Part shown: positions 505 to 61,520 of the stretch, in pieces
How the letters are laid out: the number at the start of each line of letters is the position of its first letter
Position numbering within the stretch: position 1 is the stretch's first letter
NCBI GenBank assembly: GCA_963514005.1
Contig: OY740814.1
Location: forward strand, 15,004,001 to 15,068,000
Source: Raja brachyura
Lineage: Eukaryota
Length of the DNA stretch: 64,000 nt
Direction of reading: 5' to 3'
The notes under the pieces: generated by a model
Seen by the model: only the letters and a program-made list of their open reading frames with translations
Databases searched by the model: none
What the model was told of the DNA's origin: nothing
Position numbers and translations under genes: made by a program

Positions 505-954
505 ATCATTGTAGGAAAAAGGTAAATCGAACAGTATAATTTTTTTCCAAACATTGTACCTTTTTATTCTACATGGAGAGTTAATCATTCTACTACAGGC
601 ACTTGAACATTATCCCGTCAAGATTTTCTCCAGTACTACCTAGCAACCAGGATAATGTATGTGGTTAGAAGAGCAAAACATTAAAGATGATGCAAATCTA
701 AAATCAAATCAAAAATCCTGGAGATACTCAGCGGGTAGCATTTTGTAGAAAATAAAAAAAATTAACTGCTCAGGTCGACCTACTGTTAGAACGCAGTTTA
801 CTAAGTTGCCACAATTACTGAATATGATTTCATAAAGATGAATAATTGGTACACAATAGATAATTTCAAATGTATTATGGAGTTGCACAGCATGCAAAGA
901 GGCCCTATGGCCCAACCCATCCATGCACCCTTCCAAGCTTGTTCTATTTGCCGG

Positions 955-1038
955 TACACAAAAGGCTGGAGAACCTCAGCGGGTGCAGCAGCAGCTATGG
1001 AGCGAAGGAGATAGGTGACGTTTCGGGTCGAGACCCTT
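955..1038 (-). mobile_element. Penelope-derived short element, single arm
   Basis: Near-identical to the arms at 9359-9560, 26256-26385 and 48939-49160. Confidence 0.75.
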
Positions 1039-1217
1039 GTTCTATTTGCCTGTGTTTGGCCCATATCTCTCTAAACCTATTCATTTACCTTTCCAAATGT
1101 CTTGATATCGTATGTGTCTCAACTACTTCATTATGTGGCTTATGCCATATATGTTGCACCCTCTATGTGGAAAGAGTTGCTCCTCGGGTTCCTATTATAT
1201 CTTTCAGTGAAGTATAT

Positions 1218-26700: not shown

Positions 26701-29700
26701 CCCCACCCTATCCCCCATCCTCTCCCTCCATCTCACCTCTCCCCATCCCACTCCCCCACTAAACATAATGTTTAAATAACATTTCACCCCCTCCCCACTC
26801 CCTCGCTCTCCTTACAACAATGTAACAAATCTCTCATTGTACTGGGAGTCCTGTCTTCCCTCCCCCATTCCATCTCTCTCCTGATAACAATGTAACACAT
26901 ATCTCAATGCACTGGGTGTTCTGTCATTTGGTAACATTTTAACAGGCAGGGCAAGTTTTCAAGTGAAAAGTTTGATTTTTAAAGTGAATTTTTTTTTTAA
27001 AGTTTAAATTGTGAACTACTTGTAAAATATAACATCAATCTGAATGGAACGCTGCTGTGTTTTTTAAAACAGACTTTTAAAAAAGTAAATGAGATCCCAT
27101 TGTGACATGTTGATGTATTGGAAAGGTTTGGGATAAGGGCCAGGTGCAGGCAAGTAGGATTAACGCAGTTAGGTATTCAAAACAAGGTATTTTCACCAGA
27201 AATACTTGGTGATGGAGGATAGTTGCATATAGAATTGCAAATCAACTCAGTATGAGAAAAGTGGTCATTAGCCCTGATTGACAGTGGGTGATCCAATCAT
27301 ACCCATTCTGTCATGGAATTTCACCATATTCCACCTTAAACATTTCATTGCTTGCAAAATACCTTGAGATGTGAAAAACTCTAACACAAACCCATATTCT
27401 ATGTTCTTACCTTGAATTTATAATAGCTCTCACAGGACGAGTCCCCTGTTTCATTCAGGAATACTTTTCCTTTCTTATGCGTGAAAACATCCCAGATACT
27501 GAGACCTTTCCCATCTTGATTCCAAGCTCCTTCTGTCTGGTAGGCCGAACTGCCCACACCCCAGGAGAAACCTAAAATCAGTAGAGTACTTAAACGCTGT
27601 GTTTCACGAGAATATATTTGTGCATTGATTGGTACTTGGAAATATTCCAATTTGTTTCAAAATAAGATTAATTAAAGTTTGGTATTTTTCACATTTCCAT
27701 ACAATGCAGGCCATTCATCTGATTGAGCCTATGCTGGCTGTTAGTAAAATCCCATTATCCCACTTATTTCCCTTGTAATTATTATTTCTCATACATTACA
27801 GGACGTCTCTGTTCCGAGTCCATATGCCTGTGATGCTGCTGCAAGCAAGATTTTCATTGTACCTGTGTCTCACCACACTTGTGCATGTGACAATAAACGT
27901 GACTTGCCTTGAAATCTCCCCTAATTCACCAGCCACCCACCAACACTTGGGCCAACTTAGTATAACCAATAAACCCAACAACGAGTTTCGGACATGGGAG
28001 AAAACTCAGAGCACCCAGAGAAAAGCCACATTGTCACAGAGAGAACATGGAAATCGGAGCTAAGGTCAGGATCAAACCCAGGTCACTGGAGATGTGAAGC
28101 AGCAGAACTACCTGCTGAACCACTGTGTTGCTCATATATGCTGCAGCACAGAACGATTAAAGATTGTACTGCAGGACTTTCAGCTCCAAATACAAACTCT
28201 GAAGTGATTTTAGAAAATTGGTGTGGAGCTGATTGTGTCTGGTCCAGTACAAAGCGAGAAACAGAACAACCATGCTGTCACAAGATCTGTAGCTGCACGG
28301 GACAGTTCATTAATTTGTATAGTCTGCCATGAACATAGTAAAACATCCAAGGCGTGTCGCAAAAGGAGATGGCAGAGAGAGAACCAAAAGTCAACCTACA
28401 AGTTGTGCTTTAAAGAGCATGAAAGGAGGAGAGGGAGGCAGAGAAGTCAGGGTTGGTGTCCAAGTAACTGACAGAGATTAAAATCCACATTGACTGGAAG
28501 GCTGTGAGAGTTGGGGGAACACAGAGATCCTAGAGGGCTGTAGCACCAGGGATGGGAGTGTGCCACTCAAGGTGAGCAGGGGCAAAATCTTGGAGGAATT
28601 TGAAAGTTGGAATTTTTAATATCAAGGCCTTTATTTAATTTGAAGCCTACATAACTCCCACAGCACTGGAAGTGGAATGAATGCAAATTAGACATGTTTC
28701 TTAAAGGCAATGACATTTTGAGATTCTGCATGAATAATCTGAGAGGACGTACAGTGGAAAGCAGATGTCTTTGGACTTAATGTTTCCCAAGGGCTATGCT
28801 CGCTCACACATAGGAGCACACAAGAACAAGTGAGGTTTCATAAAAGATCTTGGGAGAGTTAGACAGAAGGTCATGTCCACTGGTTGTGAAATCCAGAATT
28901 AGAAATCATGGATTCATGCTATAAGGTCATCTATTTGGGAGAGAGCTGAGTAGAGATTTATTTTGAATTCTCTCCAGCACCATACAATTGGTGCTTTGTC
29001 ATTTGCACGTTTGAGGCTCAGATTAGGTAGTTTCTGAGGTTGTAATGAATTAAGGGATATTGGAAAGTATGTAAAGTTTAATTCTTTTATGGAAGGGTGG
29101 AGAGGCCATTCATTTCAGTTCCTAAAGCTACGTGTCATGGTGGGCTTTATTCATTTCTAGCCTGGATTTGTTGTGGACTGATTAATAAATCGTCTGTGTA
29201 CTCAGTGACTCTGCTATTATTGTAACAATTGACCACTGGGATAGTGGAAGATGAAGCAGATAGATCCTAGTCCTTGGTGCTGTAACAATTCCAATATCCT
29301 AAAGTCTTTTCAGAATACTTGTTAGATTCAACCAATCAAGATTTTGAATATTTGTCTCTTTTTTTCACCCGGATCTTGATTTGTAAACTTAGAAGGAAAA
29401 TGCACATACTGTTTCTTACGGGGACTGTCAATAATCTACCACTACAGGGACAACAGTCCTTTAGCTTTGAAAACTCAATGTGATGCATATAATCCAGCTT
29501 CTGGTAACAAACATTGGCCTGCTCTAAACTGGTAAGAATTCTGAAGCTATTGGACACAGAGAACATATCAAAAGATCAGTTTATTCTTATATTGCGTAAA
29601 GTTAAGAAAATGTCCACAAATCTGGTATAATGAGAAGATTCCAGAACTGAGAAGGACCAACATTATTTTTCTTGATTATTTTTTACTTTTAGATCAGTGA

Positions 29701-31994: not shown

Positions 31995-32205
31995 ATTGTG
32001 GAATTCTCTACCACAGAAGGCAGCGGAGGCCAATTCACTGGATGTTTACAAGAGAGTTAGATATAGCTCTTGGGGCTAACAGAATCAAGGGATATAGGGA
32101 GAAAGCAGGAAATGATTTAGGATGATCAGCTATGATCATATTGAATGACGGTGCTGGCTCAAAGGGCTGAATGGCCTACTCCTGCACCTATTTTCTATGT
32201 TTCTG
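31995..32205 (+). mobile_element. CR1 LINE 3' end
   Basis: TGTGGAATTCTCTACCACAG...CCTACTCCTGCACCTATTTTCTATGTTTCT. Confidence 0.85.
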
Positions 32206-33884: not shown

Positions 33885-35125
33885 CAACAGTAACAGGATC
33901 ACTTTGAGTCAGCATGGATTTATGAAGGGGAAATCATGTTTGACTAATTTTCAGGAATTTTTTGAGGATGTAACTAGGAAATTGGACAATGGAGAGCCAG
34001 TGGATGTAGTGTACTTGGACTTTCACAAAGTCTTTGATAAGGTTCCACATTGGAGATTAGTGGGGAAAATTAGAACACATTGGTATTGGGGGTAGGGTAC
34101 AGACATGGATAGAAAATTGGTGTGCAGACAGGAAACAAAGAGTAGGGATTAACGTGTCCCTTTCAGAATGGCAGACTATTTACAATATACATTCACGATT
34201 TAGATTAAGGGATTAAAAGTAACATTAGCAAATTTGCAGATGACAAATCTGGGTGGCAGTGGGAACTGTGAGAAGGATGCTATGAGAATGCAGGATGGCT
34301 TGGACAGGTTGGGTGTGTGGGCAGATTTATGGCAGATGCAGTTTAATGTGGATAAATGAGGTTAATCACTTTGGTGGCAAGAACAGGAAGGCAAATTGTT
34401 ATTTGAATGATGTCAAGTTAGGAAAAGGGGAAGTACAACGAGATCTGGGTGTCCTTGTTCATCAGTCACTGAAAGTAAGCATGCAGGTACAGCAGGCAGT
34501 GAAGAAAGCTAATGGCATATTGGCCTTCAAAAGAAGAGGAGTTGAGTATAGGAGCAAAGAGGTCCTTCTGCGGTTGTACAGGGCCTTGGTGAGACCACAC
34601 CTGGAATGTGGTCTCACCAAAACTGTGCAGTTTTGGTCTCCAAATTTGAGGAAGAACATTCTTGCTATTGAGGGAGTGCAGTGTAGGTTCACAAGGTTAA
34701 TTCCCGAGATGGCTGGTCTGTCATACGTTGAAAGAATGGAGCGACTAGGCTTGTATACACTGGAATTTAGAAGGACAAGTGGGGATCTTATTGAAACATA
34801 TAAGACATATAAGGGATTGGACATGCCAAAGGCAGGAAACATGTTCCCGATGTTGGGGGCCACAGTTTAAGAATAAGGGGTAGGTTACTTAGTACGGAAT
34901 GAGGAAAAACTTTTTTCACCCAGAGAGTTGTGAATCTGTGAATTCTCTGCCTCAGAAGGCAATGGAGGCCGATTCTCTGGATGCTTTCAAGAGAGTTATA
35001 TAGAGCTCTTAAATATAGCGGAGAGAAGGGATATGGGGAGAAGACAGGAACAGGGTACTGATTGTGGATGATCAGCCATGATCACAGTGAATGGTGGTGC
35101 TGGCTCAAAGGGCCTACTCCTGCAC
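33885..35125 (+). mobile_element. CR1 LINE RT to 3' UTR fragment (frameshifted, internally deleted)
   Basis: [54 protein letters not shown] motifs. Confidence 0.92.
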
Positions 35126-37222
35126 TTATTGTCCATTGACAAGGAAGGAGAATGGGATAGGATCAATAACACACTTCTAATTAATCCCAGTTCAAATGAC
35201 GTTGGTCCATCTCCAGGCCACTACAGAACATTGTCATCTGACTGCGACAGCTTCAGAATCTTATTATCTTTTAAAGGCAGCCTAATCGGTCTAGCACCTG
35301 CCACAAAGTTGCATGATCAATGAGCCAGTGTTTCCTCAAAAACAGCAAAAAAACCCAACTAATTTTGTTTACAATACCTCCCTGGATAAGCCCTTTTTGG
35401 TACCCACCCTCCTGTTAGTTTAGACTAGTTTAAAGCCTCCTGCGTAGTCCAGCAAACTTGTCCGCCAGGATATTGTTCCTCTTATAGTTCAGTAGCAGCT
35501 TCTGTGACTTATACAGGTCACCTCTGCTTCTAATAGATTGCAATGGTCGAAAAGCCTTAACTCCTGCTCCAACACCTCAGCCATGCATTCATTTGCCCTT
35601 TCCTCCTATTCCTGCTGTCACTAGCACTTGAGAGGCAACAATGTTGGCATTCTTAGTCCTCTGGAATCTCCTCATTGCACTAGATTTGAAAAACAATTCA
35701 TGAAGTGCCCGTGTCGTCATTCTGTTGTATTCAGCTTATGTGCTGTTTGGTTCTGAGTCTCATCTGACATGCACTGAGAGTTGGCTTAAAATGATATTTA
35801 ATTGTAATGATGGTTTACCTGTCAATGATTAGCTTCAAGTCTATACTGGATAATCCTACAATCATCATGACTACTTTGAATTTAGGAGTAAAAAGATGTG
35901 TTGTTAAGATTTATATTCAGAAAAAAAAATGTATGTCATATAGATTGTTACAATCTCCCATCACTAACATACAAACTAAATTAATGTCATTTTGCACCCT
36001 GCATCTTGACACATATTCTCCCTTTATAAGAAAAATAAACTTTCCCAATTCCCAAATTCTGAATTTCATATCTCAAATGATTTGCTTCTGCCAAATATCC
36101 TGCAAGTACAAATAAGATGAGCTCGGGCACAGTCCAACAGTGTGAATGGACTGCAAGGACACCCAATCAAAAATAGCACCCTATTCCTTCCTCTCCTCCT
36201 GTCTTTCACCGCAGCTTAAGTTTACTAAGAACAGTGGTTGTTTGCCCTGGCATTAAGGCTGGCAAAGAGCTTAGTACGCCCCGGTCAGGTGGAGGGTCAA
36301 CAACATTGTTTTCAGTGATCAGCCGTCACTAAAATTGTCTCAGGGTACATTCTGTTTCCCCAAAACAATTCAAAGGAAATCTTTTTATCGTGGTTTAATA
36401 AATGCATGCGGTTATGTGCACTTTGTGCTGATATGGGTAATCAACTGCATTGCTACAAACATAGCCAATGCAATACTGTGAACTGTTAAGAAATGTAATG
36501 ACACCAAGAAGCAGTCTCCAACTCAGCTGTAGATGAGTAATATGGATGCCACACCAGACATTCCCGTCTCCCTGTAATTTCTGCTGACATTCGGTAGACA
36601 TCCCTCGCTCCTTGTTAGACTACCCAAGCTTGTTACCATAAACATGAACACTTACTATTGTAATGGTACTTTCAGGAGTTTCTGCACAGGCTTTTTTTTT
36701 TATTAACAAAACTAATACTGCAATAGTGATTAGTCACTATTGGAGATCCTCAGGGGATGCACAGAAGTAATAAAATAATAAAAGATCCCGTGCCCAAGCA
36801 CAGAGACTGCAGCATGTGAATATAATTCATACATCCAGCTAACTTTGTTGTTTGTTGTTCCAAAACCTCAGCACCCATGTTCCAAGAAAGTTCAAAATTG
36901 TGAAATTTACACACCCTCAGAGATGCGTTTCTGATTTTGTCTTCCTAACTCTCAGGGACTTGTCAGTTTTTTGTGCCGATAACACATCTTTATTCAGCAC
37001 AAAGGATGCACTGCTGCAACTGTCCTCCACTGCAGCTGCCCTTTCTATTTCTCTCAAGAAGGTGAAGCAATGAAGAAAACGCTTTCGACGTAATGTTTCA
37101 GAAGTTACGGTCTGCAGTTCTCAAAGGCTGTTGTGTTGATACATCCAACTTGCTGTACATTGAAAAAAAATCTGAAGACATCTTTTGTGCTATTAATTTA
37201 AAGTCTTGACACAAAGCGTGGT

Positions 37223-40200
37223 TTAGTTATATTCTTCTTCCTCTTCTTCTTCCACCTCCTCCTCCTCATCATGTCTTATATGAGTAACAAACTGGGATGT
37301 GTTTAACTGTAGCTGGGTTTGATTGATGGCATTTTCATTGTCTACCTGCATCAACGACTGTAGAAGGAAATGATTAGCAATGAAAATAAGGTAATCAATA
37401 GACACATTAGGTTAAAGCTATAATGAATCTTAAAGAACTTTCACTCCTTAAATTTAAGATTAGAATGACTATTCTAATGCAAAATATGCTTTTGCATAAT
37501 ATTAAATGTTTGTTCCCTTCTCTTTTCTAGTTCAAAACCCATTTTGAGGGGAATGAGTCTGTTGGTTCCCTACATTTGAGAACCTTGGAGGGGACAGGGA
37601 TATGGATTACGTAGGCTTGAGGAAGATACCTTTCGATTCTCGGGAAATTTTCACAACCTCCTAACATCTCAAATCAATTTACAGTTGTGTTGGAGTGTAA
37701 AGCTGCCAATTTGTGCACAGCAAGCTTCTGCAAATAGCAATGAGAAATTGATCAGGTATCTTTCAGTACTGAGGAATAAATGTCAGGCTGGGAGATCAGG
37801 AAGAGCTCCTCAAAAGTAATGTTCTGGGATCGTTCTCACCAGGGTGGGCTTCTCCATTTAATGTGTCATTAAAAATACACAACTTCACTGAGAATCTGGA
37901 CCAAACACTGGGTACCCCAGATGGGGAGTTGTATCCCTAGAAAATGGCCTGTATTCTAATTTTCTTTAACGCAAAGTCATGTTATCTGTGCATAAATGCA
38001 AATTGAGAAAAAAATGTGCTTATTCACGTAAATTCTGAGAGCGCGAATCAAATGGGCAATTTTATCCTCGATTCCTTTGAGTTTCTGAATGTTGTCTGAA
38101 CTGTGCTTATCCAGGTAAGTGAATAGTACACCGTCATGTTCTGTATTTGTACTTTGCAAATTTAAAGGCTTGAGTGTCATGAGATGATTCACTTTCAGCA
38201 GAATTCCCAAGCTTTGACTTGCTCAATCACAGGATACAGCATTCAAATTGACAAAAAGAGTACTGGTGACAAGCTGACCAAAGGATAGTTAGTGTAGGGC
38301 AGAACCCAAGAGAAAAAATTAAAATGCACGTACACAAATGAGCAAACTACAGGGGAAGCAGAGTAGACATGCAAGGAAGAAGGTACACATTGGGTTATTT
38401 ACAAAGTAATCTATTCAACCTTATTATCTTGTTCTAAATTCCTGCATTATTTTCTCCAAGTAATGGAAAATAGAACAAAGAAATGAGGTCCAAGTATGAA
38501 TATAGAAAAGTACATACAAATAATAAAGCATACCAGAATTAAGACAGCACATAACCAAAACAAAATTACAAGCAGTCACTGTGCCTGTCTAATCTGTCAT
38601 CTTGGAAATGTTTATTAGACATGACAGTATTTACAGCACAAAACACATTTCTCACCTCCATGGATTCAGGTGTTTGGCCACACTTGTCAGTACCAACAGT
38701 GTGGCCTTCATCTTTGGTCATGATCATGGATCGCAAGGCCAACTCTTCTACCTGCAATCATAGCAAACTCACATTAACATGGACACATTCCTAAAGCTGC
38801 AGATAGCCACATTAACAATAACTTGCATTCATGATGCATTTTGAAAAATAGCGACATTGCTGGTCACATAAATCAAACATGTATAGAACACAGAAACTGA
38901 AAAGCTATTTCGCCCCTCAGGCCTCTATCAAAATTCAACATGGCCTGATGTTTTTAGACCAAATGCTGGAAGGTGTTTAGATTATTATTTTATGACTGAC
39001 ACAAATACTGGCTGAATGACTCATTCAATATTGTGAATTATTAAATATAATCAAGGATTTGGGGGCTCAGATAAATCAATGGTTAGGCAGCGAGGTTAAG
39101 TTGAGGCCACAACCTGATTAATTATGATCTTAGTGAACCTGTAGGGCGTAATTGTATTATTAAATTTTCAGCTGCATTCTACCAAGACTCAGCACTTTGA
39201 CCGGATCATGACCAATCTATTTAAGTGCCATTTTCCATAAATATCTCCACATCCCCGACTCCATCTTGGTTCTGAACAAATTCATGACAGAGCCTGCACT
39301 ATGTAACAGGATAGGCCAGTAGAAACATCTTTCCTATGTCCACCTTGTTGAGCCCTAACTTTTATAAATGCTAATACAATCTCTTGTTCATCTAAAAGCT
39401 CTTAACAATACAAGTCTGGCCAACTCAATCTTTCATGGAAAATAAATTATCCTCAGAATGAGTCTCGGGAACCTTCACTGCACTCCTTGTGTAGTAGGTA
39501 TACTTTCTTGCACGATAAAGAGAGCAAATCTGTGCACAGAACTCACCAATGCCCCCATATAATTACAGCAATACTTCTTTACTCCTGTACTCAAATCTTC
39601 TGATGATAAATAAGGATAACATACAATTTTCCTTTGTAATGCCTTGCTGCACCTGCATGTTAACACACATAAACAATTCCAGATGATTGGAAGATCATAC
39701 CCAGACTGTTTACTATCTCTACCGCTACTCTTTTAAAACTCTGAGAAGTAAATTAAAGGTGTTTTGTACTTCTAGTACTTTAAATATATATATAATTTAA
39801 TTATTAGACACTTTTCTGGTATTTCTGGCTGGATTAATTCATGAAGACATGGTAATTGTTTCTGTGCCATTTGCTTATTCCATAATACAAATCCTCCCAT
39901 CTCTTTCTGTCAGGGACCCATCCTTATCTGTGCTTGCCTTTTTCTTTTTACACACCTATAGAAGATCATGCAGTCCAGTTTAAGTTTCCTGAGTGGATTT
40001 CTCACCTTAACAGAAATACATGATCTGCTGAGATGGACTGATGTGATGTAACTAAAATGCTGAGATTTTTATTTGATTACATTTCCCCAAGTCCACTGGA
40101 GGGTTTGTTAGAGATGGGATTTGAATATTATCCTACCTGCCAAGCTGTTGCTATTATAGGATAAGGGAATGGAGGGACATGGATAACACACAGGCAGAAC

Positions 40201-40537
40201 AGATTAGTTTAATTCGGCATCAGATTGAACACAGACATCGTGGGCCAAAGGGCCTGTTCCTGCGTTGCACTGTCCTATGTTCTAAGACTGGACAGATGAA
40301 TGGTAAGATAGTGGCAAGGATTTGTGCATTTTATCTGGGACATCACCTAACCTGGAAATATTTGATTGAAAGGGATTCCATCTCCTGGCATGGCACAGCA
40401 CCACAAGAGGACAATCCACTAAACACAAACCTTCTTTGTGGATTTACCTTGAGTCGGTTTAATTGATCTTGTAAAGTGCTTTTGATCTTCAGTAGAGCTT
40501 CCTCTTCTTTTTTCAGCTCTTGTAGCCGACTCAACAT
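37223..40537 (-). CDS. SNAPC5: snRNA-activating protein complex subunit 5 (SNAP19), 106 aa; coding exons 40448-40537, 38656-38751, 37223-37357
   Basis: MLSRLQELKKEEEALLKIKSTLQDQLNRLK|VEELALRSMI...|SLMQVDNENAINQTQLQL...EEEEEEEYN*; all phase-0 GT-AG junctions. Confidence 0.95.
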
Positions 40538-42179
40538 TCTAAGCCTCACTGTGATTTACAGCTCACCTGCAAGATGTTTAATTCACTTGCTCTCAATCAT
40601 ACATTGCAGTCCTACCAGGAGCAGCTATCTATGTGTGAAGACCAGAACAGATATGCAAGAGCAGCTTCGGAAATGTAGACTGCTAATTAAAGACAAAATA
40701 GCAGTATGTCATGAAATAAAGGTCTTTTCACGAGTCAATCAATACCTGAAAGAGAAAAATTGTTCAGTACTTGGAGGAATCACATCCACAATATTAGTTA
40801 ACCTTCACCGACTTATGAGAATCCCAGGTCATTCAGAGCTTAAAATGGAGAAGGAGCATTTATGATGGCTCCAAGTACTTTTGTCAGAAGCCTGGTACAA
40901 ATGACAGGAGTGCGTTAGCATCCAAACTGTCCACCCATTCACTCCCCCTGTGGAAGAATTTTCAGATCTCATATCGACCATTGACCTTAGGCATCTAGCA
41001 AAGGAAAATTAAGCCTGTACACTATTTCTACACTCTTCATCCGCTACCCACTTCAGCTTAAATATCCAATCTGAGTAAACACCAACTTTAGAAAGCTATG
41101 CTACATTCTAATGGAAAGGTTTAAAATGATTTTTAGGAAGAAATTTAAGTAAAGGACTGAGAACCAAACCCATTCATCTTTGAAATTAGAAGCAATACAT
41201 TTTGTAAACAATGGTGGAAATCTTAGGTGGTTCCCCAAAAAAACGAGTTTGTGGATGATGAAGGCACATATCTGGCGGTTGGTTAACTGAGTTGCAATAG
41301 AGACGAGGTATGACGTAACTGACCCTGCTGTCAGTGTGGAGTTTACATGTTCTCCATGTGACTAAGTGGATTTACTGTAAATTGCCCATCGTGTGCCAGT
41401 GAGTAGATTCGGGGGAGAGTGAGAAGGGGCATGTTAACAAGAAAGTTGGGAGAATAAAATAAGTCAGGGAAGGGTTGGTGTAAAAATGACAGTCGCAGTT
41501 GGATATTAATTCAGATCCGTTACTCCAGGCCTTAGGATTTCTAGCACAGTAATATGGCAGCTGCACCGTCACAGTTTAAGGTGTAGAAGGAATCACAGGA
41601 AGACACGAGTGCTGGAATAAGTCAACGGGTCAGGCAGTATCTCTATAGACAACATGAATTGGTGATGTTTCGGGTCGCGACACAAGACACTGCGGATGTT
41701 GGAATCTGGAGCAACAAACAATCTGCGGAAGAAACTCAGCGGGTTCAGCATCATCTGTGTAGGGGAAGAGATTGCAGGGTCCTGAAGCAGAGTCCCATCG
41801 CAAACATCCACAATTCCTTTCTTCTTACACATGCTGCTCGACCCGCTACGTTCCTCTAGCAGACTGTTCGTTGCAAGAAGAAACCGTTTCCACACTGTTG
41901 TCAGGGAGGGAGCTCCATAACTCAACAACGTTTAATGCAGAGGAAAAGCTTTATCACCAAATCCACACTAACAGCTGCAGGTTAATTCCCTGATGAAAGC
42001 CCTGGGTGGCGACGACACATGCCGGTCACACACACACCTTGCTGCACCGCAAACTTATCATTCACCACGCCCCGTCTTTAACCATCAGACTTGAAGAAAC
42101 CGGTGCAAAGTACAAGGTTTCGCTGATTCTGTGAGCTTGGGCGATTCAGTTGCAGCTCGGGGTTCTTTGCACCCTCAGA

Positions 42180-42480
42180 CAGACAGACAGACGACCGGTC
42201 GGCCCGTCGCCCCACTGATACCTGAACACGTCCCACCTGCGCGGCGTCCGACACGACCGGAACCCGCTGCCCCCACGCAACCGATCCGTCACTTCCGACT
42301 CCCCGCGCATGCGGGCTGGAGACACGTCAAACCCCTAGCAACCGCAGGTCGCCAGCAAACGGTGGAGTCGTTCACCCAGATCCCGCTTCCAGCGCCGGCA
42401 CCGACAGCCTGAAGTGGAGCCCGCTGTGGCCGAACTGCCGATTGTGGTTTTGTCCATTGGTTACACCGAATCGAGCACCT
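42180..42480 (-). promoter_or_regulatory. SNAPC5: CpG-island promoter and probable non-coding first exon of SNAPC5
   Basis: CpG-dense; CGGAAGTGACG (ETS/CRE overlap, 42287-42297 on -); GCGCATGCG (NRF1-like, 42305-42313); CCTAGCAAC (RFX-like); donor CAG|gtatca at 42222 and acceptor ttgcag at 40566. Confidence 0.7.
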
Positions 42481-43239
42481 TTAACGTTGCAAAGTACCAC
42501 GAGCCTCAGGTGCCAGAAAGTTCGAAGCTGTGTTGTGTGTGAGTTGCCCGAACCCTGTCTGGGGGCTGTGAAGTGAGAGGGGAGTTGATTGTAAATAAAA
42601 GATCCTGAAGGTCTCGAGCAAAAAAAAAACTGCTGGAGGGACTCAGACTGTCTGAATAAGGATCCCGTCCCCAAACATCGTCTGTCCATTTCCCTCCACA
42701 GATGCTGCCTCACCCGCTGCTCTCCTCCAGCACTTTGTGTTTTGCTCAAGCTTCCAGCATCTGCAGGCTCATGTCTCTCTATCCTGAAGGAAAGCACGTT
42801 TCCTGGCTTGAAGAATCGAGAATTAGATGTCACTGGTTAAAAATAAGATGTTCACCATTTAAGACCGAGATGAGGCTTTTTTTCCTCTCGGAAAAAGTCA
42901 TGAGCCTTTGAAACATTGTCATAAAGTGGAGTGTTGGAAAATGATTAACTTGAGAAGTGAAGGTACATGGAGTTGAGGCTGCAATTAAGTTAGTTATGAC
43001 ATTAAATGGTGTTTAAGATAGCGGCTGCGTTGTACATTCACATGCTTTATAATTCCACACCAGCCTGCTTTCACTTAAATTATGTTTTCTAACCCTGCCA
43101 TATTCCCTTTCTTTCACACATGTATTATAGAAACTAGTTGAAGATAATAGTTCTAAGTTCGGTTTAAATTTAACTTCCCTGCCATTGTATGCCATTAGTA
43201 CACAAATGAGCTCATTAATTTACATTCTGTTGGCCCATT

Positions 43240-44790
43240 TATAAGTGATAGGAGTAGAATTAGGCCCATCAAGTCTACTCTGCCATTCAATCATGGCTGA
43301 TCTATCTCTCCCTCCTTACCCCATTCTCCTGCCTTTTCCCCTTAACCTCTGACATCTGTACTAATCAAGAATCTATCTATCTCTGCCTTAAAAATACCCA
43401 CTGGCTTGGCCACGGCCATCTGTGGCAAAGAATTCCACAGATTCACCACCCTCTGACTAAATACATTTCTCCTCATCTCCTTCCTAAAATAATGTTATTT
43501 AATTCTGAGGCTATGACCTCTAGTCTTAGACTCCCCCACTAGTGGAAACATCCTCTCCACATCCACTCTATCCAAGCCTTTCGGTTTTGGCCCGAAACAT
43601 TGCCTATTTCCTTCGCTCTATAAATGCTGCTGCACCTGCTGAGTTTCTCAAGTATTTTTGTGTATCTTCAATTTTCCAGCATCTGCTGTTCCTTCTTAAA
43701 CACCTTTCATTATTCTGTATGTTTCAATGAGGTACCCCCTCATTCTTTTAAACTCCAGTGAGTACAGGTCCAGTGACGTCAAATGCTCTTCATAGGTTAA
43801 CCTACTAATTCCTGGGATCATTCTTGTAAACCTCCTCTGGACCCTCTCCAGAGCTAGCACATCCATCCTCAGATATGGTGCGCAAAATTGCTCACAAATT
43901 CCAAATGCAGCCTTAGCAACGTCTTATAGGGCAATTGAAGGAAAGAGCGTTCGTGTCGCAGCCCTGTTTCCACCAATCTTTCCACCACCACGCACAAGCA
44001 ATGACACGACAAACCATTGTATGCAGATGCTGAGAAGTGTGTTCAGCTCTGGCTGAACAACTTCTAATCTTGTGTGTGGACTGTTTTTAAATACAAGCCC
44101 TCTTGAAATAAACGCTAGCATTGAGCTTGCTTTCTTTACTACTGATTCCACTTGCAGATTAGCTTTTTGGGAATCCTGCACCAGCACTCGCAAGTCCCTT
44201 TGCACCTACAATTTCTGAATTATCTCCCCATTTAAAAAGTAGTCTACACCTTTATTCCTACTACCAAAATACATGACTTCACACTTTGTTACACTATATT
44301 CCATCTGCCACTTCTCTGCCCACTCGCCCAACCTGTCCAAGTCTTTCTGCAGCATCCTTTTCAGTTCACCTTACTCCTTCGGCTATAAGCCAATGAATAG
44401 TCTATTACTACTAGCTGTGACACAATCATTCCCAGGAATGAGTGGGTTAACATATGATGAGAGTTTGACAGCACTTAGCTTCTACGCTCTGGAGTTTAGA
44501 AAGATGAGGGGGGACCTCAGTGAAACTTACCAAATAGTGAAAGGCCTTGGATAGAGTGGATGTGGAAAGGATGTTTACACTAGTGGGAGAATCTAGAACC
44601 AGAGGTCATAGCCTTAGAATTAAAGGATGTTCCTTTAGAGGGAAATTAGGAAGAATTTCTTGAGTCAGAGTGTGGTGAATCTGTGGAACTCATCACCACA
44701 AAAGGATGTGGAGGCCAAGTCAATGTTTTTTTAAGCAGAGATAGGTACATTCATGATTAATAAGGTTGCCTAATGTTGCTCCTATCACAT
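43240..44790. mobile_element. Cluster of CR1 fragments (- 43240-44360, + 44430-44790) with nested Penelope-derived arm 43583-43702
   Basis: QRDLRVLVQDSQKANLQVESVVKKASSMLAFISRG on -; PGMSGLTYDESL..EFRKMRGDL on +; nested arm flanked by CCTTTC duplication. Confidence 0.85.
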
Positions 44791-46289: not shown

Positions 46290-46660
46290 AAAACACACAA
46301 CTTTCTGGGTCAGGCAGCAGATCTGGAGAACATGGAAAGGTGATGTCTCAGGCTGAGATTCATCTTCAGACTGATCGCAAAAGGAGGGGAAAAGCTGGAA
46401 GACAGGTGAGGGTGGGAAAATGTGACCAGTGGTGGGATCATGTTGAAGGTGGTGGAAGAATGATGCGTTAGATGTGGAGGCTGGTGAGAAGAAAGGTAAG
46501 GATGAGGGGACTTGTATCCTTGTTTTATCAGTGGGGAGAGGTAGCAAGATCAGAACTACAGGACACAGAGATGTGGGTGAGGGTTACACCTACCACACCG
46601 GTGTGCGGAGGCATATTTACAATGTACATATTTACATCTCGGATGAAAAATTGAGATCTA
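46290..46660 (-). mobile_element. Penelope-like element remnant (ORF fragment plus terminal hammerhead-like region)
   Basis: FFHHLQHDPTTGHIFP resembles the PLE RT/GIY-YIG linker; adjacent minus-strand CTGAAGATGAATCTCAGCCTGAGACATC. Confidence 0.6.
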
Positions 46661-48938
46661 GTGAGTTGCTCTGGTAGTGAGTTGGCATAGGTCTCAGGAT
46701 AAGGGGTCAGTAAATGGGTTATTGGATACTACTCAGACACATAGTACACTCAGGAGAGATTATTAAAGCTTTAGATACTAATTGAATTATAGGATATGGG
46801 AATGGATAGGAAAGTAGAGGTGAGGTCGATAAGCCATCGTCTTATTTCTATGTTCGTGCTAATTGCCGTTTTTCATCCTTAGAAATTTCTCTTGATCTGC
46901 TTATTTTAAAATGAAATAACTTACCTGGAAGCCTGGCTACAGTTACAATATCTCCTCTTGTATTCATATATTATTTTGGCATCTAATAACAAAACAAATG
47001 CATTGTCTTGTATCCTTAAGATTAACCAGCAGCTTTAACTGAAATCATAAAAACTTGAAAGCCAGAATTAAGTATTCAATTAGAATTATCCAACTTTTGT
47101 GTTGACTAGAGGGAGGAGACATCTATTTGTTGGAGTATGAACAAGTAGATGAGGATATTTTATCTATTTGTGCAGTTCAGAGTAGAATATGTGATTTCCT
47201 TGATTCTCTCATACCCATGTATAAAAACATAATAAAAATAATAATTTCCAAAATAAATACTGGCATAGACCACTTGACTACATTGACCTGTTTTGGAGCT
47301 ATACATAATTTGTAGTACCTTGAAGAGACTTCAGGGTAACTTGTTTCTTCAATAATTGTTGCTAAATACGCCAATTCTAGGGATGAAACTGCTGGAGGAT
47401 TGTCATTAGGATTTTTGTTAGCTTTAACAGTTCAAAGGCTTTTTCCTTTTTGGCAATCTCTCACAGTGAAATTGAGAGATGTCTAGTAGGATATGGATTG
47501 TGTTGTATTAACATTTACATATTCCCAACAAGGAAAGAGTTTATTTTTAATTGAACTATGGTTATATTTTGTAACCACAATCTCTGATTGGTACATCAAA
47601 CATCATTTGACCCCCTTTTAATTATTATGTAATTATGGCATATAAATTCAGAATTTAAGCCGTCTAAAAGTTTGTTCATATTTGTTAAATTTTAGGTATC
47701 TGACCACTTGTAAACTTGTTCTGAACCAATCCTCAGCAGAGTAGTTTAAAAAAAGATATAGTCCACTATATATGTGTCTTTTACTTTATATTTCAGTTAT
47801 AGGAGCAATTCTCGACACACCCAGAGTAGTTGAACTCTCTTTTTTTCTACTCTGCCTTTCTAGTAGAGCGTTCTCCCTGAATCTTTACGCATACTCATTG
47901 TTGGTGGCCTGTATTTCAGATGGGATTGATTTTTTGACGTCGGATCATCCTGTTATTCACAATATTGTCATGCTTGTGAATGCACTGGCTGATGAATAAA
48001 TAATTGATTACCAACTTCCAGCTCTCCTTATTGTTTTCCATTTTTCTCTCCTGTCCACATATCAGTTCTGGCTTAGTGGGTACCATGCTTGTCTCTCTAT
48101 CAATAGATTTGAAGTTTAAAGACTTGACCATAAAATATAAGGCAAAGTTTATGTCCAATATTGATGAGTGCTTATGTTTTATGTTTTAGGTGTTGTAGGT
48201 ATGGTTTAGGTGAAATGTTAACCAGGCCCCATCTGAACGACCCAACAGCCATGTTTTGAAGTTTAGCAGACAGGTTTTCCCCTTATGCCCTAAACTGCAC
48301 ACTAAACTAAAATACATACCTAGATATTGTCAATAATAGTTTGATCTGTTAACATTGCTGTATTGTTTCCTATATTACAGTAGTGACTATGCTTTGTAAA
48401 TACTAATTTGGTGTAACAATGCTTTAAAATTTCTGAAAGTTGTGAAAAATATTACAGTGGTGAAATTCTTTCAGTTTGTTGCTGTTCTGAAGTTTAACAC
48501 TAAGTACCACGTTGCCTTATTGAAATGAGCCTGTTCTGGAGTGCAAGAATATGCTACTTAGTATACCTTGAGGATTCACCAAATGTACAGTAACTGCAAG
48601 TATAGAATGAATAATGTGCATAAAATATGGTCCCGTATTCACACATAATTTCCATCTGAAACTCTTACCTTGTCTTAGAGGCTGTTAAGAATATAGGAAC
48701 AAAGTGTGACCCCACCTTGTAATGTGGCATTACCTTGTTTGCTTACATAGACACATCACTTTGAGAGCAGCTGCTTCATTGTTACTGCTATAACGTTGAG
48801 ATCTGTAAACTCAACATTCTGCAGGCAATCATTGTTTCCTTATTTCTTTGTAGTAGCTCTTATTTACTGTGGAGTTGGAATATTATATCATCTAAGAAGA
48901 TAAGAGAGCGAAGCAGAAATAGACAATATTATTTAATG

Positions 48939-49160
48939 GGGGTTACACAAAAAGCTGGAGAAACTCAGCGGGTGCAGCAGCATCTAAGGAGTGAAGGAGA
49001 TAGGCGACGTTTCGGGTCGAGACCCTTCTTCAGACTGAAGGGTCTCGACCCGAAACGTCGCCTATCTCCTTCACTCCTTAGATGCTGCTGCACCCGCTGA
49101 GTTTCTCCAGCTTTTTGTGTAACCCTCGATTCTCCAGCATCTGCAGTTCCTTCTTTAACA
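48939..49160. mobile_element. Young fold-back Penelope-derived element with perfect 89-bp inverted arms and hammerhead core
   Basis: Arms 48940-49028 / 49037-49125; TSD CAATATTATTTAATG (48924-48938, 49161-49175). Confidence 0.9.
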
Positions 49161-49734
49161 CAATATTATTTAATGCCCACTCTGCCATATGGTAAGGTCA
49201 TTGTTGATCTGTTCATTAGTCTCATCTTCAATTTCCTGCCCAGCCCCAATAACCTGCGAATGCCCGGTGGTCCAAAAATCTCTCCATGAGTTAACATCTG
49301 GCCCAATTACAAACTAGTGAATCACAGTTTCATGTTGAACTAATTCCAGCTTGTTGTGAGCCTCTTCGCATTGGTACTGAAGTAGTGAACGCAGGACAAG
49401 CAAATGTGTCTTGTTTTTTATCCGATTGAACTAACTTTTGACTCCTATGTAATTCGACACGAAACTAATCAGTATTTGATGTTTTTTTAAATAACAAATT
49501 CTGCTTGGTAATGCTGCTGATCCAGAAGTGAGAATGAATTGGGTCTGACTAAATTTGTGAATATTAATCTACCTGTTGAGTCTTTACAAACCATTGTAAA
49601 GCCCCCATTGCCAATGACATGCAGTAGTCAGGGGGGAAAAAATGCTGTAAATCGTATTTAGTACATTGCATTGGCTGGAGCAAAGGCTTTCCTGGTCAGT
49701 GATAATGCAACAACTGTTAGTCTTAAGCCAAAAG

Positions 49735-54135: not shown

Positions 54136-55157
54136 GGATCACAGGGAGTAACAACTGTCAAGGTGAGGCATTATCAAAAAAATATTAGCAGAAGCAGATA
54201 AGAAGCTAGCAAACACAGTGTGAGATCAGATAGCAGATAATAATTCTTGCCGAAATAGTGGCTTGTGAAACTTGTGATTAACCATGCCTTTCTGACACTG
54301 GAAATGACATATACATTCTTTGCATCTGCTAAATACACCATAGTGACTGTGTTCAACCAGTCATGTAAGAGATACCAAAGCTCAGTACATATTTCTGTCA
54401 TTTCCTCTTCTTTTAATATAATACAGCTTTTGAAGTGAAAGCAGGTTTTATTTGGACACTGAGATGCAGAATAATATCTAAATCTGGCATGGACGGAAAA
54501 AAACATGGTATTTGAACCCTACAACATAGGATGTTAGATTACTAATATAAACATTATATTTCAAGATGTCTCATAATTAAGGAAATATTAATTCACAATA
54601 AGGATTAACCCACAAATAAATTGTCTTAAAAAAGAAAGGCTATTCTACTTCCATTATAATGACATATATAATATGCACAGGACTGGAAGGGCTGGGATGG
54701 TTTGACATCATTTCATAACCAAAACAATGCAGCTATGTCAATATGGAGCAGGCGTTGGGACAGATTTAAATGGGAAAATATGGCACTCTGATGGTGATAA
54801 CATTAATTTTACAATAAGTTGAGGTCTACTTGTTAAAAATTATTTTCCCATCTGCTGTCATTTGGCAAGTAATCATTTCTGAGTCAATAGGAAAATTGGA
54901 AATCTTTAGGTTTGAAATCAGTGCATAGTGTTAGGAAATCTTTTTGGTGTTTCCAGAACACTGGTTCTATTTAGTTTTCAATATAGACAGTCCCTGGGTT
55001 ATGACAGTTCCTGGGAACTGTCTGAAAGTTGATTACCCCAAATATCTGTTTTTTTTATAATAGCCCAAATTGTATCTACAGACAGGTGCTAAATTCATTA
55101 ATTTCATTGACTATTCATCCTCACACAACCTATAATTAAATTAATGAAATGTATATA

Positions 55158-56774
55158 CAGTGGCTTGCAAACGTTTTCATACCCCTTGAACTTTTCCACA
55201 TTTTGTCACGTTACAACCTCCAATGTAAATGTATTTTATTGGGATTTTATGTGATAGACCAACACAAAGTGGTGCATAATTGTGAAGTGGAAGGAAAATG
55301 GTACATGGTTTCCAAATTTTATTACAAATAAAACAACTGAAAAGTGTGGCGTGCAAAAGTATTCAGCCTGCCTGAGGCAATACTTTGTAGAACCACCTTT
55401 CGCTGCAATTACAGCTGCAAGTCTTTTTTGGGATATGTCTCTACCAGCTTTGCACATCTAGAGACTGAGATTTTTGCCCATTCTTCTTTGCAAAATAGCT
55501 CAAGCTCAGTCAGATTGGATGGAGAGCGTATGTGAACAGCAATTTTCAAGTCTTGCCAGAGATTCTCAATTGGATTTAGGTCTGGACTTTGACTGGGCCA
55601 TTCCAACACATGAATATGCTTTGATCTAAACCATTCCATTGTAGCTCTAGCTGTATGTTTAGGGTTGTTGTCCTGCTGGAAGGTGAACCTCTGCCCCAGT
55701 CTCAAGTCTTTTGCAGACTAACAGGTTTTCTGCCAAGATTGCCCTGTATTTGGCTCCATCCATCTTCCCATCAACTCTGACCAGCTTCCCTGTCCCTGCT
55801 GAAGAAAAGCATCCCCACAGCATGATGCTGCCACCACCATGTTTCGCAGTGGGGATGGTGTGTTCAGGATGATGTGCAGTGTTAGTTTTCTGCCACACAT
55901 AGCGTTTTGCATTTAGGCCAAAAACTTCAATTTTGGTCTCATCAGAACAGAGCACCTTCCTCCACATGTTTGCTGTGTCCCCCACATGGCTTGTGGCAAA
56001 CTGCAAATGGGACTTCTTATGGCTTTGTTTCAACAATGGCTTTCTTCTTGCCACTCTTACATAAAGGCCCGATTTGTGGAGTGCACGACTAATAGTTGTC
56101 CTGTGGACAGATTCTCCCACCTGAGCTGTGGATCTCTGCAGCTCCTCCAGAGTTACCATGGGCCTCTGGGCTGCTTCTCTGATCAATGCTCTCCTTGCCC
56201 GGCCTGTCCGTTTAGGTGGACAGCCATGTCTTGGTAGGTTTGCAGTTGTGCCGTACTCTTTCCATTTTCGGATGATGGATTGAACAGTGCTCTGTGAGAT
56301 GTTCAAAGCTTGGGATTTTTTTTACAACCTAACCCTTCTTTAAACTTCTCCACAACTTTATCCCTGACCTGTCTGGTGTGTTCCTTGGGCTTCATGATGC
56401 TGTTTGTTCACTAATGTTCTCTAACAAACCTCTGAGGTCTTCACAGAACAGCTGTATTTATACTGAGATTACATTACACACAAGTGGACTCTATTTACAA
56501 ATTTGGTGACTTCTGAAGGCAATTGGTTGCACTGGATTTTATTTAGGGGCATCAGAGTAAAGGGGGCTGAATACTTTTGCACGCCACACTTTTCAGTTTT
56601 TTATTTACAAAAATAGTTGAAAACCATGTATCATTTTTCTTCCACTTCACAATTATGCGCCACTTTGTGTTGGTCTATCACATAAAATCCCAATAAAATA
56701 CATTTACGTTTCTGGTTGTAACGTGACAAAATGTGGAAAAGTTCAAGGGGTATGAAAACTTTTGCAAGTCACTG
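55158..56774 (-). mobile_element. Full-length Tc1/mariner DNA transposon (IR/DR type, 1617 bp)
   Basis: TA TSD at 55156-55157 and 56775-56776; ~210-bp TIRs beginning CAGTGGCTTGCAAA / ending TTTGCAAGTCACTG; inner direct repeat GTGCAAAAGTATTCAGCC. Confidence 0.95.
55375..56395 (-). pseudogene. Tc1 transposase, DD34E, frameshifted
   Basis: MKPKEHTRQVRDKVVEKFK..; [21 protein letters not shown] with 34 residues between D2 and E; frameshifts near 56320, 55710 and 55425. Confidence 0.92.
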
Positions 56775-57774
56775 TATGAACTAATGCAGCAAAACAATCT
56801 TGAAAACTGCTTTAAAAATGTTTGGGAGCATTTGTAGAGAGTAGGATTTGTATGTGAGATCATCTTTAACTTCAGGATACCCTGGGATTTGTATGTGAGA
56901 TAATCTTTAACCTAGGGATACCTAGGGTGGCCTTGGCTTGGAGACCAATGCTCCAAAGCAGAACAGTCTCCAGGTTATTGTAAAGGTTTTGTTCCTGAGA
57001 ATTGTTCATAAACCGCTTTTTCCATGTCTGAAATGAACAATTTCAATAAGGTTGATTATCATGAACATTTATTTATTGCCATACCCTGCATAGTTACAAT
57101 GGTACAGAATCAGAATGTTACACGACTAGTGGCTAGCTTCAGTGGCTTTAAACTGTAAATGGATGTCACATTGTTTGATAAAGTATTTTACAAGATGAAT
57201 AGAAGAGATCGCATTGTCAGTTTCAAAACCACATATCTTAAATTGCCTCCCGCCATGAACTGGCACCTGCATTCTTAACAGACAATGGTCCCTGATTACT
57301 GCAGGAAGGTTACATGTAAACATTTTTTGAAGACTGGTTGTATGTTGAATTAATCATTATTCCATAACTCCTGTAGTTATTTCCATTTTTCTAACCAACT
57401 TTCCTATTCTAAATATTCTTGAAATGTTTATGGGAGAATTTGCGAAAAGTTGGATTTCTGTAAATCGGGTATTCCGTAATCGGGCATCCCTTATAGTTTA
57501 TGGGAAGGAATTCTGAGTGTGACCCCCATTGCCTTTTTGCAGTTGATGGTAGTGATTATCTGGTGCACTTGCTGCAGCTGGAAGAATGGAATGTTGAGTG
57601 AAACCATCACAATGCAGTTCATTATAGGGAATGAAAATTTATAGGGAATGTTGGCTGGGTGTCAGTGACTCCTGCAGTCAATAGAAAGAGGTTGGGTGAG
57701 AATTCAGTACCATCTGTAGATAATAATAGAGAACACCACATGTGGGACCATGCAGTTGATAGTAGGAAATGTCT

Positions 57775-57932: not shown

Positions 57933-58414
57933 CTAGTGTGTATTGCAACACCAGCACACTCTTTAGTAAGTGGAAACAAGTTTGAGTATGTGACCAGTGC
58001 CTCCTCTAATTGATGGTGGGAGATGTAAGGTACAATACCTCTACATCTGATGAAAGGGAAAGTCAAGTCGAAACCAGCAGCCACTACAGTCAATGGACAG
58101 AACATGGAGTGAGCCCAGAGCCCCAGCAGTTGATAGACCATAGGTAGGAGAAGTAGGCTATTTAGTCCCTCATGCTTGGGATGTGTTAAATGAAGAGTTT
58201 CTACCTCATGTCATTTTCTTTATCAATATTCCTATTCCCTCCTTTGTCGTAAGCAAAAATGGAAATATTAGATTTGGACCCTATAGCTAAATAGGTGATA
58301 TAAATTGTGAATACTATTGTTGGGATCTGAGCGCCAATTGCTGCAATACACAATCGGTCTCAAAATACCAAATGGAGAGTGACCTGTTTACTCTCTTTGT
58401 TTAGTTTCTAAAGC

Positions 58415-58830
58415 CAAGGCCTACTGGATTTCCTGGTTGCTAACCATTTCAACTCCTCTCCACATCCACATACCGACCATTTTACTCATTGCCAGAGGGA
58501 GACCACCCACTCACCCACCCACCCACCGACCCCCCCCCCCCCCCCCGTTTTCTCCCCTCTCACTTGCTCCTTCCCTGTGCCCCATCTAGATTCCACCATA
58601 CCCCCCCCCTCCTCTCCCCTCCCCTCCCCTTCTGCTAGTTTCCTGCATCTAGCTCTGCAATTCACAACTCCAACCCTGTTGCAAACCCCATGCATTTATC
58701 TCTGGCCCTTGTTCCAATCATCTGCCTATCAAAATCCCCCCTCACCTGTGTCCATCTATAACCTGCCGTACTTTGCCCTGCCTCTCACCTCTTCTAGCTT
58801 TCTTCTTCCCCGTCCCCCCTCCTCATATCC
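58415..58830 (+). mobile_element. Penelope-like element 3' region with C-rich tracts
   Basis: VANHFNSSPH-like end of a GIY-YIG ORF followed by pyrimidine-rich terminal sequence. Confidence 0.5.

Positions 58831-59813: not shown

Positions 59814-61520
<1,707 letters not shown>

Follow-up and report, generated by a model that had tools for sequence, protein, structure and literature searches.

Analysis of a 64-kb window of the Raja brachyura genome (contig OY740814.1, positions 15,004,001 to 15,068,000; all coordinates below are counted within this window) revealed a fold-back insertion at 48.9 kb that is very probably the dead-on-arrival, heavily 5′-truncated 3′ end (the pseudo-long terminal repeat, or pLTR, region) of an endonuclease-bearing Penelope-like retrotransposon (PLE). 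The insert is built from the perfect inverted arms that had been described in an earlier note on this DNA (48940–49028 and 49037–49125), which are 89 nt each, 100% complementary and separated by an 8-nt spacer. It is flanked on the plus strand by a 16-nt direct repeat (48923–48938 and 49160–49175), the two copies of a target site duplication (TSD) with an AT content of 88%. Because the first A of the repeat is also the element's last base, the 222-bp insertion with a 15-bp TSD given in that note is valid and equivalent to 221 bp with a 16-bp TSD; the left copy counts 15 nt if this A is assigned to the element. For numbering, a solo copy of the same family at 26257–26387 served as the reference (position 3 being C3 of the hammerhead core, the cut falling after position 30 and the unit ending at position 131). 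Relative to this reference, a single extra G (48939, plus strand), which may be untemplated or a product of slippage, stands at the boundary between the TSD and the left arm. The left half (48940–49038, minus strand) is an inverted, 5′-truncated and tail-less copy of the element's 3′ end, whose own 3′ end lies at reference position 96, as in the sister arms at 9358 and ~955. The right half is a direct 5′-truncated copy (49037–49125, plus strand) that begins at core position G8, lacks its own C3–A7, and continues into a 35-nt 3′ tail of the PLE type (49126–49160, plus strand; such tails are described in PMC8557442, PMC3846280 and PMC11167929). Confined to a single arm and not mentioned in the earlier note, this unpaired extension has the greatest diagnostic value of all the features of the insert. 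With halves of ~99 and ~124 nt, no open reading frame (ORF) is left.

The hallmarks of PLEs, namely an inverted 5′-truncated copy, a one-sided tail whose 35 nt fall within the range of 30–40 bp, and a TSD of variable length, are all found at this locus. According to the accessible text of PMC8557442, PLEs typically carry an inverted 5′-truncated copy beside the 5′ end, together with a 30–40-bp tail that is usually on one end, while the available parts of PMC3846280 report inverted pLTRs, a 31-bp tail, TSDs of 8–10 bp, and junction palindromes that are interpreted as self-priming. The portions at hand of PMC8969392 and PMC2377424 agree with this inverted-copy-plus-tail picture (the D. virilis repeat being 34 bp), and that of PMC6155905 adds nothing further on sharks. 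The insert resembles the described endonuclease-bearing PLEs (Penelope/Poseidon, Neptune) in its head-to-head inverted 3′ ends, one-sided tail, short variable TSD, junction palindrome and strong 5′ truncation, and differs from them in that its halves are too short for any ORF.

Searching the window with the reference copy (nhmmer) returned 23 matches at E < 0.5, which were grouped into 16 loci, the weakest family matches having E values of 0.04–0.16. Head-to-head pairs were found at six of these loci (9.4, 13.6, 41.7, 48.9, 52.1 and 52.9 kb), with junctions that differ. A young group could be delineated that comprises five insertions with seven arms, all five with flanking repeats (16, 14, 8, 15 and 6 nt), and the earlier view of the 48.9-kb copy as a relatively young retro-insertion was borne out. 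The 3′ ends of the seven young arms fall into two classes, at position 131 (four arms) and at about positions 92–96 (three arms). The tail belongs to the direct arm and is missing from the inverted one in both young fold-backs; the sister fold-back at 9345–9574 (arms 9358–9560) shares this layout, with a 14-nt TSD, a 3-nt overlap of its arms at 9444–9446, no intact core, and five positions at which the arms differ. The remaining young copies are solo arms, comprising a tail-less copy truncated within the core (938–1050, minus strand, 15-nt TSD), the tail-bearing reference with an intact core (26248–26393 with its flanks, minus strand, 8-nt flanking repeat), and a more diverged tail-bearing copy truncated in helix II (43577–43708, plus strand, 6-nt flanking repeat). 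Since solo arms of each end class have TSDs of their own, the hairpin appears to be one outcome of insertion and not the unit of transposition. For five older loci, the TSD search gave 0, 10, 5, 5 and 0 nt, which was uninformative, and these loci were left out of the count of 5′ ends given below. The older compound locus at 41605–41867 contains two family fragments in tandem and one inverted, resembling a miniature of the partial-tandem PLE layout, and the solo copy at 43583 lies inserted within a LINE-like fragment.

A complete minimal type I hammerhead core lies on the minus strand of the insert at 49033–49006, as had been noted before, and reads CUGAAGA-A-GGGUCUCGACCC-GAAAC-GUC. In this core, C3 is located at 49033, an extra A at 49026, helix II at 49025–49014, GAAA at 49013–49010, the ACGU palindrome at 49010–49007, and C17 at 49006, which places the predicted cut between 49006 and 49005. 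The earlier proposal of a PLE-like minimal hammerhead, with its additional nucleotide and palindromic helix III, fits the consensus of the PLE minimal hammerhead ribozymes (min-HHRs) that Cervera and de la Pena (2014; PMC4209133) give in their supplement (Fig. S3), with which the core shares CUGANGA-H, G10.1–C11.1, GAAA-N, a palindromic 15.2/16.2 and NUH. The ACGU palindrome would allow a dimeric helix III, its 4-bp self-duplex having a predicted energy of −3.1 kcal/mol. Helix I measures 2 bp only, as in D. virilis, whereas most of the motifs listed in that source have 3–5; none of the 56 motifs in its Fig. S3 comes from a cartilaginous fish. Helix II can be drawn with 4 bp and a 4-nt loop or with 5 bp and 2 nt, and is nearly self-complementary. 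A degenerate core pattern matched the window four times (two exact) against 0.00 expected, and the second exact core is located 22.6 kb from the 48.9-kb copy. Across 13 window copies, 79% of the cells pair, compared with 13–43% in slid controls; the share of paired cells is 87.5% for the 2-bp helix I and 80% for helix II.

The hammerhead is predicted to be switched off by the hairpin, in contrast to the earlier description of a hairpin built around a ribozyme. The insert strand folds with −198 kcal/mol (z = −27), a value that none of 200 shuffles equalled, and imposing the hammerhead fold on the full minus-strand fold-back transcript costs 50.7 kcal/mol, compared with 4.8–10.5 kcal/mol in solo contexts; the pairing probability of helix II in the fold-back is 0.0. 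Because the antisense arm is transcribed first, a transcript ending just past the cut site pays the same 50.7 kcal/mol, so that the core would be buried even during transcription. The ribozyme of the 48.9-kb copy is predicted to be inactive on account of this cost of ~51 kcal/mol. The earlier note had assigned the same core with a 3-nt deletion to the plus arm, a reading that calls for correction. Similarity of the plus arm to the family begins only at G8 (49037), and the CTGA that precedes it is the reverse complement of the TCAG found upstream in the minus arm, a TCAG that also occurs in the older copy at 46371, with which the upstream bases at the junction were compared. The apparent deletion is therefore an effect of the inversion junction, and the insert holds one whole core on one arm, not two. 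Since the plus strand lacks a full core and the minus-strand core is buried, no cis cleavage is expected of this insertion. Cofolding of two copies gave antisense-like and helix II pairing and no catalytic dimer, and was not used, as energy models miss hammerhead cores. A microRNA reading of the hairpin was rejected, the Rfam matches described below being mostly to microRNA models that fit any long hairpin.

Several results weigh against the assignment to PLEs and against the hammerhead. Membership of the family among PLEs rests on anatomy and motif, since no match to a reverse transcriptase or GIY-YIG domain was obtained. Pfam returned no match for 130 ORFs of at least 28 aa lying within 900 nt upstream of 11 copies, and homologue searches with the remnants at 46.4 and 58.4 kb gave no informative match, which is weak evidence since these fragments are short and frameshifted. 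Only three of the five young TSDs are clearly above the window's AT content of 60% (88, 75, 71, 60 and 50%), and chance may explain part of the flanking repeats of 6 and 8 nt. With regard to the ribozyme, an Rfam search of the whole window gave no match at the gathering score, and the 20 matches obtained at E ≤ 10 for 48800–49300 were all below that score and included no hammerhead family. In the alignment of 13 copies, the covariation score was reached by 141 of 500 shuffles. The expectation that the core is conserved across the family relative to its flanks held in one comparison and failed in another: against the young reference, five older copies match at 47/55 core positions and 195/279 downstream positions (Fisher p = 0.02, positions not being independent), whereas against their own majority they show no core excess (47/55 versus 233/279). 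This pattern fits a core that is kept between source subfamilies and decays neutrally after insertion.

Further searches for a parent ORF were equally negative for reverse transcriptase and GIY-YIG domains. No such match was found among 21 selected ORFs; the scan of 98 of the 179 ORFs of at least 48 aa in 35.5–59.8 kb identified only SNAPC5 (twice); and four remnant pieces gave only a weak, below-cut-off Hen1_LCD match on two of them. Scans of bacterial and archaeal genomes gave no match, and no full-length PLE copy was found in the window. An old copy with a decayed core (46299–46560, minus strand) is preceded by ~190 nt of pyrimidine-rich, ORF-like sequence and is a possible remnant of the parent; this frameshifted sequence (46375–46560, minus strand) lies directly upstream of the hammerhead copy, may belong to an internally deleted parent element, and has no database match. 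At 58412–58830 (plus strand), a short reading frame is followed by a long pyrimidine-rich tract, with no hammerhead after it. We take the remnants at 46398–46583 (minus strand) and 58412–58537 (plus strand) to resemble parts of a PLE ORF, and 58412–58830 to resemble the end of a PLE GIY-YIG domain with the 3′ untranslated region, which the searches did not confirm. At the DNA level, the tract at 58.7–58.8 kb is only marginally linked to the sequence that precedes the 46371 copy, with 45 of 2000 shuffles being as good.

The 5′ ends of the young arms offer a view of how such copies may arise. All seven start between reference positions −3 and +14, that is, 16–33 nt upstream of the cut site, and these boundaries are set by TSDs or junctions and not by the query. 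Exponential-truncation simulations with five decay lengths placed five independent events within 17 nt in 0.0005–0.11% of cases, with a null model that is simple and a sample that is small (five insertions). Because all young arms begin within the 5′ half of the core and thus before the cleavage site, their templates should have been uncleaved or religated, and the clustering suggests a defined stop for reverse transcription on such RNA. We tentatively propose that in this family the PLE reverse transcriptase stops at a defined place, the hammerhead region, with cDNAs that are primed from both nicks at the two start sites flanking the tail reading past the cut site, halting in the CUGAAGAAGG half and joining by microhomology. 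The halt might be due to the ribozyme, either folded or bound by protein, or to a helix of ~10 bp predicted between the CUGAAGAAGG half and the tail end. In the predicted fold of the solo unit (26257–26387, minus strand; z = −2.1, equalled by 6 of 200 shuffles), the tail end pairs with the 5′ half of the core, the tail also pairs with an internal segment of 8–9 nt, and the internal 3′ end lies in a single-stranded bulge, which supports the idea weakly.

The likely course of integration would begin with a GIY-YIG endonuclease that makes staggered nicks ~15–16 bp apart in an AT-rich target, as the TSD implies. The nicks would each serve as primer for reverse transcription of RNA derived from a single source copy, with the tail end as the starting point of one cDNA and an internal site 35 nt upstream as that of the other, in line with the two classes of 3′ ends and with in vitro data from Anolis. 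After passing the cleavage site, both cDNAs would come to a halt within the 5′ half of the core, where the arms are observed to end. Joining of their 3′ ends via 2–3 nt of microhomology, followed by fill-in, would leave a head-to-head palindrome with a one-sided tail. The hammerhead would be a passenger inherited with the pLTR; in the 48.9-kb copy it is enclosed in the 89-bp stem and is not expected to cleave in cis. Consistent with such joining, the junction of this copy (49028–49040) is a 6+1+6 palindrome at which the arms overlap by 2–3 nt (49037–49039); the 3-nt overlap of the 9.4-kb arms lies at a different place (9444–9446), both of these arms having incomplete cores. Among the solo copies, the overlap with the TSD is 3 nt at 1042, 2 nt at 26387 and absent at 43583, so that an overlap of 2–3 nt at the 5′ junction is seen in four of the five young insertions.

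[quoted passage not shown] The present family resembles this element (PAc) in its two start sites delimiting the tail, both-strand priming, AT-rich target and uncleaved template. Differences are that the PAc ORF starts inside stem II, whereas stem II of the present family lacks an ATG, and that 5′ ends clustered at the core are not described in the accessible account of PAc. In our literature search, outside of which most subscription papers lie, we found no report of 5′ ends clustered at a hammerhead, nor of the present family. If the stop at the hammerhead is real, a single mechanism would account for the tail, the inverted pLTR and the uniform stub length, and palindromes of ~90 bp would be scattered across the genome at about one per 11 kb (six in the window). 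The two-primer route also recalls the inversions produced by L1 twin priming, in which two nicks prime two cDNAs that are joined by microhomology within one TSD. In the L1 case, the primers copy non-overlapping parts of the RNA, whereas here the starts are 35 nt apart and the same stretch is copied, giving a palindrome, and there is no poly(A) tail.

The clustering of 5′ ends can also be read as the 5′ end of the RNA itself. Under this explanation, the template would be a short non-autonomous master derived from a pLTR (SINE-like or retrozyme-monomer-like), with an RNA whose start lies a short distance before the hammerhead and which relies on a PLE protein for its mobilisation in trans. We regard this as a possibility of limited weight. 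The position of all seven young 5′ ends and the rarity (≤ ~0.1%) with which simulated truncation clusters five events within 17 nt both favour it, and pLTR-related non-autonomous elements have been described in vertebrates (bioRxiv 10.64898/2026.07.22.740005, in the part available). On the other hand, the young 5′ ends are ragged across 18 nt and not fixed, the older copy at 46371 extends ~190 nt upstream into ORF-like sequence, and the young unit occurs in no head-to-tail array among the 16 loci.

A PLE origin could also be combined with self-priming, whereby a single cDNA folded back on itself at the junction palindrome and served as its own template, and we consider this route rather unlikely. 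The 6+1+6 palindrome lies at the junction, the 8-nt loop has the cDNA (antisense) sense on the left arm's strand, and junction palindromes are interpreted in this manner in the accessible text of PMC3846280. Self-priming would also directly explain a variant common to both arms, and such variants exist: a G-to-A change at position 44 occurs in both 48.9-kb arms and in none of the five other young arms, and the 9.4-kb fold-back has a position-83 variant common to its two arms that is also present in the 1-kb copy. Variants common to both arms of each young fold-back are as expected if the arms were copied from one source, which the preferred PLE reading assumes as well. The earlier note had called the position-44 variant private and the arms copied from one template or homogenised. 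The absence from other young arms and the single source hold up, with the qualifications that the variant is private only within the window and lies at a CpG, and that strong homogenisation is argued against since the 9.4-kb arms differ at five other positions. Against self-priming, only the strand without the tail could snap back, and a second priming event would still be needed for the 35-nt tail; moreover, the 9.4-kb junction has a 3-nt overlap without the 6+1+6 palindrome.

The earlier note had instead inferred a non-coding, ribozyme-bearing mobile family that forms double-stranded RNA (dsRNA); in its strong form, this would be a separate fold-back family in which the entire hairpin transposes and the ribozyme or dsRNA plays a part in the cycle. 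Head-to-head pairs at 6 of 16 loci, with the two young ones alike in size and layout, are in keeping with this idea, which we nonetheless consider very improbable. The junctions vary between fold-backs, the 9.4-kb sister (9358–9560) differs in its junction and lacks an intact core, solo arms of either end class are bounded by TSDs of their own, and the core of the 48.9-kb copy is sequestered, with no pairing probability left for helix II. Moreover, inverted 5′-truncated copies with a 30–40-bp tail are the published PLE norm, and the consulted parts of PMC4209133 report thousands of dispersed min-HHRs, opposite-strand pairs 100–700 bp apart, and a monomer that does not cleave. Perfect palindromes can be mis-assembled or homogenised, yet it is hardly credible here that the assembly is at fault or that a solo copy later underwent inverted duplication or gene conversion, as the arms are asymmetric with family-defined end points, a single perfect TSD encloses them, the layout recurs at diverged loci, and the five differences between the 9.4-kb arms speak against strong homogenisation.

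Two further classes of element were tried and rejected. A MITE or foldback DNA transposon is at odds with the asymmetric ends (the tail), TSDs of 6–16 nt, solo arms and variable junctions. Non-LTR retrozymes are likewise short, non-coding, equipped with a type I hammerhead and related to PLE pLTRs, but, in the available text of PMC7229834 and bioRxiv 10.64898/2026.07.22.740005, they consist of tandem units, arranged head to tail with a ribozyme in each. The 48.9-kb locus is head-to-head with one buried core, not a series of head-to-tail units with complete hammerheads, and no head-to-tail array of the young unit was found among the 16 loci.

Under the preferred PLE reading, the 48.9-kb locus would be ordinary retrotransposon debris, and perfect hairpins centred on a hammerhead can be by-products of PLE integration and not functional RNAs. 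The family would also provide a natural record of the PLE cycle, with five young insertions in 64 kb displaying both 3′ start classes, short overlaps and clustered 5′ ends. If transcribed, such palindromes would be an abundant endogenous source of dsRNA.

The genes and transposons of the window mark it as vertebrate DNA, and its repeats seem akin to ones known from cartilaginous fishes. The insert lies between the SNAPC5 exons (37226–37411 and 40346–40555, minus strand) and a 568-codon open frame with N-terminal ankyrin repeats (59814–61520, minus strand), which we take to be ANKRD34-like. Among the scanned ORFs, Pfam gave no match for those lying between 47 and 59.8 kb. A GC- and CpG-rich segment at 42100–42550, upstream of SNAPC5, probably represents a promoter island, and a splice donor may lie on its plus strand near 42540; if a plus-strand gene starts there, the 48.9-kb insert could be intronic. 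A scan for bacterial promoters and terminators found nothing and is not relevant to a vertebrate. Exons of a glycoside hydrolase family 1 gene, presumably lactase-like or klotho-type, were identified at 15618–15941 and 16716–17075 (minus strand). Other mobile elements in the window include a Tc1/mariner-type element (55155–56777), whose inverted ends of 179 nt are 92% complementary and whose transposase is divided between two frames, and fragments of a LINE-like family (1218–1526, 6174–6899, 7689–8203, 32001–32204, 33929–35144 and 43446–44640), which we assume to be of the CR1 type. The solo copy at 26257–26387 lies among copies of an unclassified repeat with long purine/pyrimidine tracts, which occurs at 10040–11020, 25410–25620 and 25690–27110 with shared ends and in opposite orientations.

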